From IMG/VR virus record IMGVR_UViG_2585427971_000006: DNA of 38,221 nt. One strand, written 5' to 3'. This stretch comes from a virus (taxonomy: Duplodnaviria > Heunggongvirae > Uroviricota > Caudoviricetes). Below the pieces are notes generated by a model. It worked only from the letters and a program-made list of their open reading frames with translations. It was not told the origin of the DNA and ran no database searches. Below are positions 6,030-32,816 of the stretch, in pieces (the stretch's first letter is position 1; every line of letters starts with the position of its first letter). The translations under genes were made by a program, and so were the position numbers.

Positions 6030-6056
6030 AACCCGCTTCGGCGGGTTTTGTTTTTT
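6030..6056 (+). terminator. intrinsic terminator of the hok mRNA
   Basis: CCCGCTTCGGCGGG hairpin followed by TTTTGTTTTTT. Confidence 0.6.
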
Positions 6057-18252: not shown

Positions 18253-18546
18253 ATGAAACTTCATGAGATGAAGCAAAAACGAAACACCATTGCAAAGGAT
18301 ATGCGTGCACTGCATGAAAAAATTGGTGATAACGCATGGACTGATGAGCAACGGGCAGAGTGGAACAGGGCGAAAGCTGAGCTGGATGCGCTGGATGAGC
18401 AAATCGCCCGTGAAGAAGAGTTGCGCCGTCAGGATCAGGCATATGTGGATGAGTCCGGGCCGGAAGAGCGCCAGAATAATGAGGCGGAGAACGGGAAAAA
18501 GGCGGTGGAAGAGAAGCGCGCTGCGGCATTATCATTGACACCATGA
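18253..18546 (+). CDS. capsid scaffolding / delta-domain-like coiled-coil protein (97 aa)
   Basis: Highly charged coiled-coil-like sequence (DEQRAEWNRAKAELDALDEQIAREEELRRQDQ); stop overlaps the capsid ATG (ATGA at 18543-18546). Confidence 0.6.
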   Translation: MKLHEMKQKRNTIAKDMRALHEKIGDNAWTDEQRAEWNRAKAELDALDEQIAREEELRRQDQAYVDESGPEERQNNEAENGKKAVEEKRAAALSLTP

Positions 18547-19337
18547 AGGCTTATGGCGGGATTGCCAGTGTGGCGCAACTTCTGACCACATCAACCGGGC
18601 AGGATATCACCTGGTCAACGTCTGATGGCACGACTGAAGAGGGCGAACTGCTGGCGGAAAATACAGCCGCAACGGAACAGGATGTGACGTTCGGGACCGC
18701 TATTCTGGGGGCTAAAAAGCTGTCATCAAAAATAATTCGTGTGTCCAATGAGCTGCTCCAGGACAGTGGGGTGGATATTGAATCTTATCTGGCAAACCGT
18801 ATTGCCCAGCGTATTGGTCGTGGAGAGGCAAAATATCTGGTTCAGGGGACCGGAACGGGATCACCGTTACAGCCAAAAGGGCTGGCAGCGTCGGTGACGG
18901 GAACCATCCAGACTGTAGCCTCTGCCGCTTTCACCTGGAAAGAAATGAATGCCCTGAAACATGCCATTGATCCGGCATATCGTGGTGGGCCGAAATACCG
19001 CTGGGCATTCAATGATGCCACATTGCAGACTATTGAAGAGATGGAGGATGGACAGAAACGCCCGTTATGGCTGCCGGATATTGCAGGCGGTACGCCGGCT
19101 ACTGTGCTGGGGATCCCTTATGTTATTGATCAGGCTATTGACGGGATTGGTACCGGAAAAAAATTCATTTTCCTGGGGGATTTCAACCGCTTTATCATTC
19201 GCCGCGTTACTTATATGGAACTGAAACGTCTGGTTGAGCGTTATGCTGAGTTTGATCAGGTGGCATTTCTGGCTTTCCATCGTTTTGACTGTGTGCTGGA
19301 AGATGTGGCAGCCATCAAGGCGCTCACTGGCAAATAA
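18543..19337 (+). CDS. major capsid protein (HK97 fold, 264 aa)
   Basis: Follows protease and scaffold-like gene; strong terminator after it; size fits an HK97-fold body without the delta domain. Confidence 0.8.
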   Translation: MKAYGGIASVAQLLTTSTGQDITWSTSDGTTEEGELLAENTAATEQDVTFGTAILGAKKLSSKIIRVSNELLQDSGVDIESYLANRIAQRIGRGEAKYLVQGTGTGSPLQPKGLAASVTGTIQTVASAAFTWKEMNALKHAIDPAYRGGPKYRWAFNDATLQTIEEMEDGQKRPLWLPDIAGGTPATVLGIPYVIDQAIDGIGTGKKFIFLGDFNRFIIRRVTYMELKRLVERYAEFDQVAFLAFHRFDCVLEDVAAIKALTGK

Positions 19338-30900: not shown

Positions 30901-31374
30901 AACGTCACGATTAACGAGAACTGCCGGGTTCTGGGAAAACTGTCCGCGAACCAGATTGAAGGCGATCTCGTTAAAACAGTGGGCAAAGCTTTCCCCCGTG
31001 ACTCCCGGGCACCGGAGCGGTGGCCATCAGGGACCATTACCGTCAGGGTTTATGACGATCAGCCGTTTGACCGGCAAATTGTTATTCCGGCTGTGGCATT
31101 CAGTGGCGCTAAGCATGAGAGAGAGCATACTGATATTTACTCCTCATGCCGTCTGATAGTGCGGAAAAACGGTGCTGAAATTTATAACCGTACCGCGCTG
31201 GATAATACGCTGATTTACAGTGGCGTTATTGATATGCCTGCCGGTCACGGTCACATGACGCTGGAGTTTTCGGTGTCAGCATGGCTGGTAAATGGCTGGT
31301 ATCCCACAGCAAGTATCAGCGATTTGCTGGTTGTTGTGATGAAGAAAGCCACTGCAGGCATCACGATTAGCTGA
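27979..31374 (+). CDS. J: central tail fibre / host specificity protein J (1131 aa)
   Basis: N-terminus [54 protein letters not shown] and most of the body match lambda J from memory; the last ~150 aa diverge. Confidence 0.9.
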
Positions 31375-31441
31375 ATTTTATAACCCAGATACGGGCACCA
31401 GAAATGGTGCCTTTTTTATTGCAGAAAAGCGAGAGGTAATT

Positions 31442-32041
31442 ATGCGTAAATTATGTGCTGTTATTCTATCCGCAGTAGTCTGGCTGGTTGCCGCTGGTAC
31501 GCCAGCGAGCGCAGCAGAGCATCAGTCCACACTAAGCGCCGGGTATCTTCAGACCCATACTGATATGCCAGGCAGTGATGACCTGAAGGGCATTAACGTG
31601 AAATACCGTTATGAATTTACGGACACGCTGGGGCTGGTGACGTCATTCAGTTATGCCAATGCCAAAGATGAGCAAAAAACGCATTACAGCGATACCCGCT
31701 GGCATGAAGATTCAGTGCGTAACCGCTGGTTCAGCATGATGGCGGGGCCATCTGTACGCGTGAATGAATGGTTCAGTGCTTATGCGATGGCAGGTGTGGC
31801 TTACAGCCGTGTTTCGACGTTCTCCGGGGATTATCTCCGCGTAACTGACAACAAGGGGAAAACGCACGATGTGCTGACCGGAAGTGATGACGATCGCCAC
31901 AGCAACACGTCTCTGGCGTGGGGAGCTGGCGTGCAGTTTAACCCGACCGAATCCGTGGCCATTGATATTGCTTATGAAGGCTCCGGCAGTGGCGACTGGC
32001 GCACTGACGGTTTCATCGTGGGTGTCGGTTATAAGTTCTGA
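31442..32041 (+). CDS. lom: Lom outer-membrane protein (Ail/Lom family, 199 aa)
   Basis: Signal peptide, beta-barrel-like alternation, C-terminal GVGYKF; position after J as in lambda. Confidence 0.85.
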   Translation: MRKLCAVILSAVVWLVAAGTPASAAEHQSTLSAGYLQTHTDMPGSDDLKGINVKYRYEFTDTLGLVTSFSYANAKDEQKTHYSDTRWHEDSVRNRWFSMMAGPSVRVNEWFSAYAMAGVAYSRVSTFSGDYLRVTDNKGKTHDVLTGSDDDRHSNTSLAWGAGVQFNPTESVAIDIAYEGSGSGDWRTDGFIVGVGYKF

Positions 32042-32068
32042 TTAGCCAGGTAACACAGTGTTATGACA

Positions 32069-32094
32069 GCCCGCCGGTTCAGGCGGGCTTTTTT
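32069..32094 (+). terminator. intrinsic terminator after lom
   Basis: GCCCGCC GGTTCA GGCGGGC hairpin followed by TTTTTTGT. Confidence 0.65.
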
Positions 32095-32097
32095 GTG

Positions 32098-32800
32098 CAC
32101 AGAAAACCCCCAGCTAGGCTGGGGGTTCCGGAAAGCTTTCAGCTTTAAGCCAGTTATTAAAACCCCTTTTGATTTGTTAAAACACCTTGCGGTCTGGCAA
32201 CTGCAAGTGTCAAACAAGAAATCAAAAGGGGGTCCCAATGGGGAACGAAAAGAGCTTAGCGCACACCCGATGGAACTGTAAATATCACATAGTTTTTGCG
32301 CCAAAATACCGAAGACAGGTGTTCTACAGAGAGAAGCGTAGAGCAATAGGCAGTATTTTGAGAAAGCTGTGTGAGTGGAAAAGTGTACGGATTCTGGAAG
32401 CTGAATGCTGTGCAGATCATATCCATATGCTTGTGGAGATCCCGCCCAAAATGAGCGTATCCGGCTTTATGGGATATCTGAAAGGGAAAAGCAGTCTGAT
32501 GCTTTACGAGCAGTTTGGTGATTTGAAATTCAAATACAGGAACAGGGAGTTCTGGTGCAGAGGGTACTACGTCGATACGGTGGGTAAGAACACGGCGAAG
32601 ATACAGGATTACATAAAGCACCAGCTTGAAGAGGATAAAATGGGAGAGCAGTTATCGATTCCCTATCCGGGCAGCCCGTTTACGGGCCGTAAGTAACGAA
32701 GTTGGATGCAAATGTCAGATCGTGTGCGCCTGTTAGGGCGCGGCTGGTAAGAGAGCCTTATAGGCGCATTTGAAAAACCTCCGGCTATGCCGGAGGATAT
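32098..32800 (+). mobile_element. IS200/IS605-family insertion sequence (boundaries approximate)
   Basis: Single Y1 transposase gene flanked by perfect subterminal hairpins CCCCCAGCTAGGCTGGGGG (32107-32125) and CCTCCGGCTATGCCGGAGG (32777-32795); about 700 bp; inserted between the lom terminator and the stf start. Confidence 0.6.
32238..32696 (+). CDS. tnpA: IS200-family transposase TnpA (Y1/HuH, 152 aa)
   Basis: MGNEKSLAHTRWNCKYHIVFAPKYRRQVFY...ADHIHMLVEIPPK (HuH motif) and the catalytic Tyr region RGYYVDTVG; track ORF starts upstream at 32187. Confidence 0.85.
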   Translation: MGNEKSLAHTRWNCKYHIVFAPKYRRQVFYREKRRAIGSILRKLCEWKSVRILEAECCADHIHMLVEIPPKMSVSGFMGYLKGKSSLMLYEQFGDLKFKYRNREFWCRGYYVDTVGKNTAKIQDYIKHQLEEDKMGEQLSIPYPGSPFTGRK

Positions 32801-32816
32801 TTATTGTGGAGTGGAT

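Follow-up and report, generated by a model that had tools for sequence, protein, structure and literature searches.

The closest described relatives of the element treated here are IS200 of Salmonella enterica and IS1541 of Yersinia pestis and Y. pseudotuberculosis. In the published layout of IS200, a left-end terminator occupies nt 12-34 and a stem-loop over the Shine-Dalgarno sequence occupies nt 69-138; the element has been described as nearly dormant, and IS1541 is reported at much higher copy number in Yersinia (PMC4513863). Further comparison is possible with IS608 (Helicobacter pylori) and ISDra2, which have subterminal hairpins in direct orientation and insert in a fixed orientation 3' of a short target, with no target duplication. 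In the model for IS608, a tetranucleotide 5' of each hairpin pairs with the cleavage or target site (PMC5934647). With regard to the surroundings of such elements, a 2026 survey found terminator-like sequences enriched just upstream of insertion sequences, most strongly for the IS200/IS605 family (PMC13548323).

As described below, a member of this family lies in a stretch of viral DNA of 38,221 nucleotides, which we call the window. The whole window corresponds to a lambdoid prophage of the ST131 strain EC958, at approximately 2.137-2.175 Mb and on the minus strand in that strain's record. In the interval from lom to stf, the side tail fibre gene, it carries a complete 711-bp copy of IS200C (IS200 group, IS200/IS605 family) at 32095-32805 on the + strand, with tnpA (152 aa) as its single significant open reading frame and with neither tnpB nor iscB. 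We are confident of the overall explanation, in which a complete IS200C copy integrated at the T-run of the lom terminator and is probably close to neutral for stf. The features involved are the following (coordinates in the window, strand, description and basis).

7839-8660, + strand: gene for a Q-type antiterminator (Pfam Antiterm PF03589, E = 1.6e-54; 'antitermination protein' in EC958)
31442-32041, + strand: lom, coding for an Ail/Lom outer-membrane protein and followed by the targeted terminator (Pfam Ail_Lom, E = 1.7e-127)
32068-32094, + strand: lom intrinsic terminator, hairpin 32068-32089 plus T-run to 32094 (terminator scan, folding, empty-site comparison)
32095-32805, + strand: complete IS200C, GTGCACAG...GGATATTTATT (empty-site comparisons, identical copies at unrelated sites)
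32103-32106, + strand: putative guide AAAA, immediately 5' to the core of the left hairpin, a candidate for pairing with the T-run target (analogy with IS608)
32105-32127, + strand: left-end subterminal hairpin, element nt 11-33, presumed TnpA binding site (folding, compensatory changes)
32105-32228, + strand: IS200 5' regulatory RNA region, Rfam RF01405 STnc490 (cmscan)
32238-32696, + strand: tnpA, intact 152-aa Y1 (HUH) transposase, ATG at 32238 and stop at 32694-32696 (Pfam Y1_Tnp, matches to TnpA structures)
32778-32796, + strand: right-end subterminal hairpin, terminator-like on both strands (terminator scan, folding, compensatory changes)
32801-32805, + strand: TTATT, the last five bases of IS200C, a putative right cleavage site that resembles the T-run target (right-end comparison)
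32808-35194, + strand: stf, side tail fibre gene with Shine-Dalgarno sequence GGAG at 32808-32811 and ATG at 32817 (Pfam phage_tail_N, E = 6.2e-68)

The transposase was compared with both profiles and solved structures. It matches Pfam Y1_Tnp (PF01797) over profile positions 2-121 of 121 with E = 3.8e-38 and 130.7 bits, and a phmmer search matches it to the TnpA structures 2ec2, 2f4f, 2a6m (IS608) and 2vhg with E-values from 4e-23 to 4e-19. In the alignments with 2ec2 and 2f4f, its HUH motif DHIHMLV is paired with DHIHLFV and its catalytic-tyrosine segment RGYYV with RSYFV. The element thus shares a Y1 HUH TnpA with IS608 and ISDra2 (2a6m and 2vhg, E = 4e-19). Those two elements have a tnpB gene as well, and their targets are TTAC or TTGAT, whereas IS200C is without tnpB and is targeted to a T-run at the base of a host terminator hairpin.

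Judged by its sequence, the element is IS200C, of the IS200 group. The span 32098-32800 (703 bp) has 100% nucleotide identity to copies that RefSeq calls 'IS200/IS605-like element IS200C family transposase' (tnpA product WP_000526135.1, 'IS200C family transposase'), and such identical copies are found at unrelated sites that include a P1-like plasmid, the yfeX-pbp4b interval and the lacY-lacZ interval. Membership of this named element is therefore very likely, on the strength of complete identity to the PGAP-named RefSeq copies; the name itself comes from that RefSeq annotation. The ends at these chromosomal and plasmid sites are also the same, and the location alone is particular to the present copy, which lies in an ST131 lambdoid prophage just after the terminator of lom. 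IS200C is widespread: it has matches in 3,096 of 5,426 complete Escherichia coli genomes and a near-full-length copy in 2,063, with up to 35 places in a single genome. The copy in the window is apparently transposition-competent.

Compared with IS200 of S. enterica, the architecture is the same (left terminator hairpin, Shine-Dalgarno stem-loop, one tnpA of 152 aa and the STnc490/art200 region), and IS200C can be regarded as a sequence variant, with a Salmonella houtenae copy 91.9% identical. The length is 711 bp here, where it is defined from empty sites, versus the published 707 bp. IS1541 is an element of other species whose TnpA is 95% identical and whose nucleotide identity is about 87.5%. 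It shares the hairpins, the right-end TTATT and the position directly behind a hairpin and T-run (loci L010-L016, L027 and L028 of our comparison set), and its first 8 nt are GTGCCCAG versus GTGCACAG in IS200C.

The 5' region of the element contains a full-length match to STnc490 at 32105-32228, with a score of 146.1 bits (the gathering score is 56) and E = 2.4e-31. In the predicted fold, a stem-loop at 32163-32231 occludes the tnpA Shine-Dalgarno sequence GGGGG (32228-32232); the 91-nt segment 32155-32245 that contains this stem-loop has a folding energy of -37.2 kcal/mol, with z = -5.8. When the element is numbered from 32095 as nt 1, the left hairpin falls at nt 11-33 and the stem-loop at nt 69-137, at most 1 nt from the published IS200 layout. 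By its position, the left hairpin is the counterpart of the bidirectional terminator described at the left end of IS200. Two weak Rfam matches, to ST7-AS1_2 (24 bits) and Trp_leader (21 bits), were set aside as far under their gathering scores; the Trp_leader match is the lom terminator.

The exact ends were determined from occupied and empty sites together. At all independent IS200C sites compared (the P1-like plasmid, yfeX-pbp4b and lacY-lacZ), GTG precedes the base corresponding to 32098 and TTATT follows that corresponding to 32800, and the flanks diverge beyond these bases. Deleting 32095-32805 in silico gives a 240-nt lom-stf junction that is found in one piece, at 100% identity, in other genomes, among them S88, APEC O1, IAI39, 042 and CE10. 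Similarly, when the homologous 711 bp are removed from the lacY-lacZ copy, the result is exactly the lacZ-lacY spacer of K-12 MG1655. Each empty site leaves some ambiguity, of 3 nt at lom-stf (GTG on both sides) and of 5 nt, in the opposite direction, at lac (TTATT on both sides). The two ambiguities overlap solely at GTGCACAG...GGATATTTATT, so the ends are 32095 and 32805. The boundaries 32098-32800 are ruled out, since the GTG and TTATT extensions at every independent site and the empty lom-stf and lacZ-lacY sites fit only 32095-32805.

These ends imply an insertion in which bases were neither gained nor lost at lom-stf, and target-site duplication is absent. A 5-bp duplication of TTATT was considered as a candidate and rejected: the 5-mer on the left varies (TTTTT, TTATT, TAATT, TTGTT), the one on the right is nearly always TTATT, and the K-12 lac site has a single TTATT, which also counts against duplication. 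The right-end TTATT is identical in the IS200C and IS1541 copies examined except for one (L090, with TTTTT). In more distant relatives the right end is TTATT or TTTTT/TTTT, and again the left-flank 5-mer varies.

In place of terminal inverted repeats, which are absent, IS200C has subterminal hairpins on one strand. The left hairpin, CCCCCAGC-TAG-GCTGGGGG at 32107-32125, has a perfect 8-bp stem, or 10 bp when extended to 32105-32127, and folds with -18.7 kcal/mol (z = -3.6 versus shuffled sequence). The right hairpin, CCTCCGGC-TAT-GCCGGAGG at 32778-32796, folds with -15.9 kcal/mol (z = -3.5 versus shuffled sequence). The two hairpin regions are direct repeats with 78% identity, as expected because the transposase reads both ends on one strand. 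Conservation of the pairing was assessed in alignments of 20 left ends and 25 right ends, all distinct, from GTDB species representatives whose TnpA is 66-96% identical. Pairing is kept at 94% in the left helix, with 25 double-change cells, and at 99.5% in the right helix, with 17, and for each the covariation score was reached by 0 of 500 shuffles. In both alignments the pairing collapses when the 3' partners are slid. On this comparative evidence, the hairpins are to be regarded as genuine, structurally conserved features of the element ends, beyond chance.

Most of what the initial annotation had said of the element itself is upheld. It had called an IS200-family element with a 152-aa Y1 transposase gene; the gene is confirmed by the Pfam match, and the family assignment can be narrowed to IS200C, given the intact transposase and genuine hairpins. 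The comparison with an uninterrupted lom-stf junction that it had suggested was run and worked, placing the ends at 32095 and 32805; the element is where it had been put (32098-32800), except that it extends 3 nt further on the left and 5 nt further on the right. Both hairpins are also real: the left one is at 32107-32125 as given, and the right one, given as 32777-32795, lies one base further right, at 32778-32796.

Neither the element nor its position here is new to public annotation. In EC958, JJ1886 and further genomes, the RefSeq annotation already shows IS200C in the interval from lom to the tail fibre gene; in the EC958 genome paper the prophage at 2.14 Mb is unnamed and the IS200C copy is unmentioned. 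With a 64-nt query covering the junction of the lom terminator and the left end (at least 80% of the query covered), 248 of 5,426 complete E. coli genomes have the insertion, while the uninterrupted junction type occurs, at varying identity, in 4,238. From these counts, the lom-stf insertion marks, by shared inheritance, a sub-population to which the ST131 strains EC958, JJ1886 and JJ1887 belong.

The target of the insertion is the lom terminator, which has an 8-bp GC-rich stem followed by T6 and folds with -18.8 kcal/mol (z = -3.8). The last five T of this terminator (32090-32094) are the integration target, and IS200C starts at the next base, in the same orientation as lom. For comparison with other insertions, a fixed rule was applied: an abutting terminator has to show 5 or more base pairs in the stem, 3-8 nt in the loop and a T-rich tail that reaches the insertion point. 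A terminator-like hairpin and T-run abuts the left end in 24 of 26 distinct left flanks by this rule; in the remaining two the hairpin, judged by eye, is imperfect or has a long loop. Two controls were scored by the same rule: on the opposite strand at the right end 0 of 34 qualified, and at an arbitrary point 60 nt downstream 1 of 34 did. The last 5-mer of the left flank is TTTTT at 17 of the 26 sites, TTATT at 4 and another T-rich sequence at 5.

The pattern extends beyond this set. Seven further IS200C sites show it by eye, two in lambdoid phages and five in E. coli (plaP-sbcB, pqqU-mcbR, kdsA-ldr, fadR-ycgB and ldr-bcsG, of which four are distinct). Every IS200C site examined lies directly after a hairpin and T-run and is co-oriented with the upstream gene. 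A hairpin and T-run is also found directly upstream of IS1541 in Yersinia and of relatives in Phytobacter, Serratia, Erwinia, Desulfovibrio, Sutterella and Firmicutes. In short, the place directly behind a hairpin and T-run is the one that IS200-group elements of E. coli, Yersinia, Serratia, Desulfovibrio, Sutterella and Firmicutes almost always occupy, and because the flanks of these relatives show the same arrangement, the T-run at 32090-32094 is a typical target for the group. The literature searched, with older IS1541 and IS200 papers outside its coverage, yielded no base-resolution or mechanistic account of targeting to terminator T-runs beyond the enrichment in PMC13548323; PMC3184786 and PMC2965389 contributed nothing on the point.

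A position behind a terminator might instead be what survives when IS200C inserts at any T-rich pentanucleotide and only harmless insertions are kept. The E. coli copies examined do lie in intergenic regions, often between convergent genes, which are the least harmful positions, and the survey authors take upstream terminators as limiting transposase expression (PMC13548323). However, with the element removed, the window has 383 TT[T/A]TT sites, of which 31 (8%) are abutted by a hairpin, versus 24 of 26 insertions (Fisher p = 1.8e-21); a T-run alone is therefore an insufficient explanation, and in those 24 flanks the left end meets the T-run at base resolution. Harmless intergenic T-runs with no hairpin should be tolerable too, yet they are essentially unused. 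Moreover, all insertion sites have the element in one and the same orientation with respect to the hairpin and T-run, as the result for the opposite strand at the right end also indicates. Thus, although the association could partly reflect survival of harmless insertions over target choice, we think it improbable that survival accounts for it.

As to how a terminator T-run might be recognized, IS200C would integrate by the single-strand peel-and-paste route of its family. The AAAA at 32103-32106, which is at least 90% conserved in the alignment of relatives' left ends, would base-pair with the T-run in its single-stranded form, in the way that TTAC is paired by the guide of IS608, and the right end, a hairpin followed by TTATT, would mimic the target. 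As in IS608 and ISDra2, a candidate guide is present 5' of each hairpin: a second one, the A-run 32773-32777, is placed to pair with the terminal TTATT. With those two elements as the reference, the left cleavage site of IS200C lies 8 nt 5' of the putative guide AAAA and 12 nt 5' of the 8-bp hairpin core. The left junction is palindromic, GGGCTTTTTTGTGCA / TGCACAGAAAACCCC (T-run/GTGCAC/AAAA). The guide is A-rich and the target T-rich in all relatives, which makes covariation uninformative for their pairing. We offer as a tentative reading that IS200-group TnpA uses an intrinsic terminator as a landing pad, with the T-run captured by the AAAA guide and the right end rebuilding a terminator-like target; that this is at once real and previously undescribed seems to us rather doubtful. 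If true, it would explain why this copy lies precisely in the interval from the lom terminator to the stf ribosome-binding site.

The remaining question for this locus is the effect on stf. The initial annotation had correctly located the element between the lom terminator (32068-32094) and the stf ribosome-binding site (GGAG, 32808-32811), and its statement that IS200 left-end hairpins act as terminators agrees with the literature (PMC4513863). Its conclusion that the insertion probably uncouples stf from upstream late transcription is not supported, in view of the native terminator, the Q gene, the intact stf start signals and the insertions at tR2 described below; the polarity argument had overlooked the native terminator and Q antitermination. 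The element ends 2 nt upstream of the stf Shine-Dalgarno sequence and 11 nt upstream of the ATG, and both signals are unchanged by the insertion. In the uninterrupted junction, the T-run of the lom terminator ends 12 nt before the same Shine-Dalgarno sequence, and in the interrupted one the right hairpin with ATATTTATT takes the former place of that terminator relative to the stf ribosome-binding site.

A polar block would mean that the left terminator hairpin, the right hairpin and 711 nt of poorly translated RNA together cut stf and the downstream tail fibre genes from late transcription driven by pR', which, if true, would give virions without side tail fibres. There are grounds for considering it. 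The left end of IS200 is a bidirectional rho-independent terminator that shields tnpA from transcription entering from outside, and it was a polar insertion in hisD that led to the discovery of IS200 (PMC4513863). In the present copy, the right hairpin with ATATTTATT also scores as terminator-like on the + strand. A scan of 31300-33000 for an outward or internal promoter that could drive stf found no sigma-70-like site, so that between lom and stf there is no promoter-like site to restore expression.

Against such a block, the uninterrupted junction already has a strong, canonical terminator ahead of stf, and a second one lies between J and lom (31393-31412). Several more terminator-like sites are found on the + strand upstream of the element, from near Q through the head and tail genes. 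With native terminators upstream of it, stf must already depend on a terminator-resistant polymerase, and Q is encoded in the window at 7839-8660. On the + strand the left hairpin of IS200C is followed by UUCCGG and not by a T-run. In EC958, stf downstream of the element is annotated as an intact gene of 2,379 nt.

Other phages offer a further comparison. Two deposited lambdoid phage genomes (LR597651 and PV340574) have IS200C directly after tR2, between ren and ninB and in the same orientation. In the standard gene order of lambda, Q is downstream of this site, so that in both phages, which are known here from the deposited genomes, transcription must cross IS200C to reach Q. A search for the origin or viability of phage Lambda_ev058 found nothing useful. 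All in all, a polar block appears unlikely. Given that even the native junction carries a terminator and that late transcription is antiterminated by Q, we regard the insertion as probably near-neutral for expression of stf; some added polarity is possible.

It would be most surprising if the copy were instead a domesticated regulatory locus, kept for host-useful RNAs (the 5'tnpA sRNA and the antisense art200, both under Rfam STnc490): the STnc490 match is full-length and high-scoring, and in Salmonella a processed IS200 5'UTR is reported to regulate invF and virulence regulons (PMC5435999; bioRxiv 10.1101/2024.06.26.600842), but this copy is identical to dozens of others in the same genomes, with nothing special about it, and its transposase reading frame and both ends are intact as in a mobile copy. 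The literature searched held no E. coli data on the function of IS200 regulatory RNA.

Apart from the element, the window differs from EC958 at two places only. One is in stf, where a run of five A at 33452-33456 replaces the six A of EC958, after about codon 212; the missing A causes a frameshift and thus splits stf into separate reading frames. This five-A allele was found in 0 of 940 matching records. The other is in the major capsid gene, where 133 bp are deleted at 18530/18531 and the gene is split into 18253-18546 and 18543-19337; the 133 bp are present in 12 of 12 matches listed. Neither the frameshift nor the deletion was seen in the complete E. coli genomes searched, and the two may be sequence errors instead of real mutations. 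If they are real, this prophage copy is defective regardless of IS200C.

For annotation, the analysis supplies exact ends for the element, 32095-32805, and the lom-stf IS200C junction, present in 248 of 5,426 complete genomes, could be used as a lineage marker. More generally, the rule that these elements land at the T-run of a terminator helps in predicting and delimiting members of the IS200 group, and it makes the target specificity of IS200 TnpA testable. If the landing-pad reading is true, it would amount to a structure-directed rule of safe-harbour targeting that extends from Enterobacterales to Firmicutes.

Among 50,697 phage records, IS200C occurs in only 3. Two lambdoid phages carry the element directly behind the tR2 terminator (AACAGGCCTGC..GCAGGCCTTTTTATT followed by the element), between ren and ninB and in the same orientation as the pR operon; the antiterminator gene Q is presumably downstream of this site, as in the standard lambda gene order. 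These post-tR2 copies are a parallel of the lom-stf case:

1501-2211 of locus L094, IS200C in LR597651 Lambda_ev058
1501-2211 of locus L095, IS200C in PV340574 PhiR63_2

Outside phages, relatives turn up in draft assemblies. In several Enterobacterales drafts the element forms a stand-alone contig of about 700-710 bp (L008, L013, L018), which is a collapsed repeat. A draft contig of Vagococcus sp. WN89Y, a member of the Firmicutes, carries a copy (L015) whose TnpA is 95% identical and whose nucleotide sequence is about 93% identical, and it shares its left-end variant with the Phytobacter copy. These features of the Vagococcus copy point to one of two origins: a recent horizontal transfer, or contaminating DNA in the assembly.

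Comparison with the same prophage in the ST131 E. coli strain EC958 reveals two differences in the window, one in stf and one in the major capsid gene:

32817-35194, stf, side tail fibre gene
32787-33944 and 33911-35194, the two ORFs into which a frameshift splits stf
18253-19337, HK97-type major capsid gene

Within stf, a run of five A at 33452-33456 corresponds to six in EC958, and this 1-nt deletion shifts the frame after about codon 212. Because the A5 allele is absent from all 940 matching records among complete E. coli genomes (best identity 98.4%), it is either private to the window or an error made in sequencing the homopolymer. An internal direct repeat (33359-33598 versus 33547-33787, about 83% identity) also lies in the alanine-rich middle of stf and appeared as secondary BLAST hits when the window was compared with EC958. 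In the major capsid gene, 133 bp of EC958 are absent at the junction 18530/18531, where there is no obvious repeat, and the loss shifts the frame to leave fragments 18253-18546 and 18543-19337. Among the matches listed (two-piece matches), 12 of 12 from other genomes keep the 133 bp. If real, the deletion would leave this prophage copy unable to make capsids.

The right end of the element itself (32773-32805: A-run, hairpin, ATATTTATT) scores as terminator-like on both strands and resembles the hairpin with a T-rich run that the element itself targets, so that another IS200 might in principle insert there in tandem. The E. coli copy at L090 has TTTTTT at its right end, as against TTTATT. Further potential IS200C targets are the terminator-like sites of the plus strand, which are spread from the neighbourhood of the Q gene across the head and tail genes:

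31393-31412, plus strand, terminator-like hairpin and T-run between J and lom
near 6055, 8765, 11025, 19380, 20908 and 22347, plus strand, further terminator-like hairpins and T-runs

These plus-strand sites illustrate the degree to which the prophage depends on antitermination.
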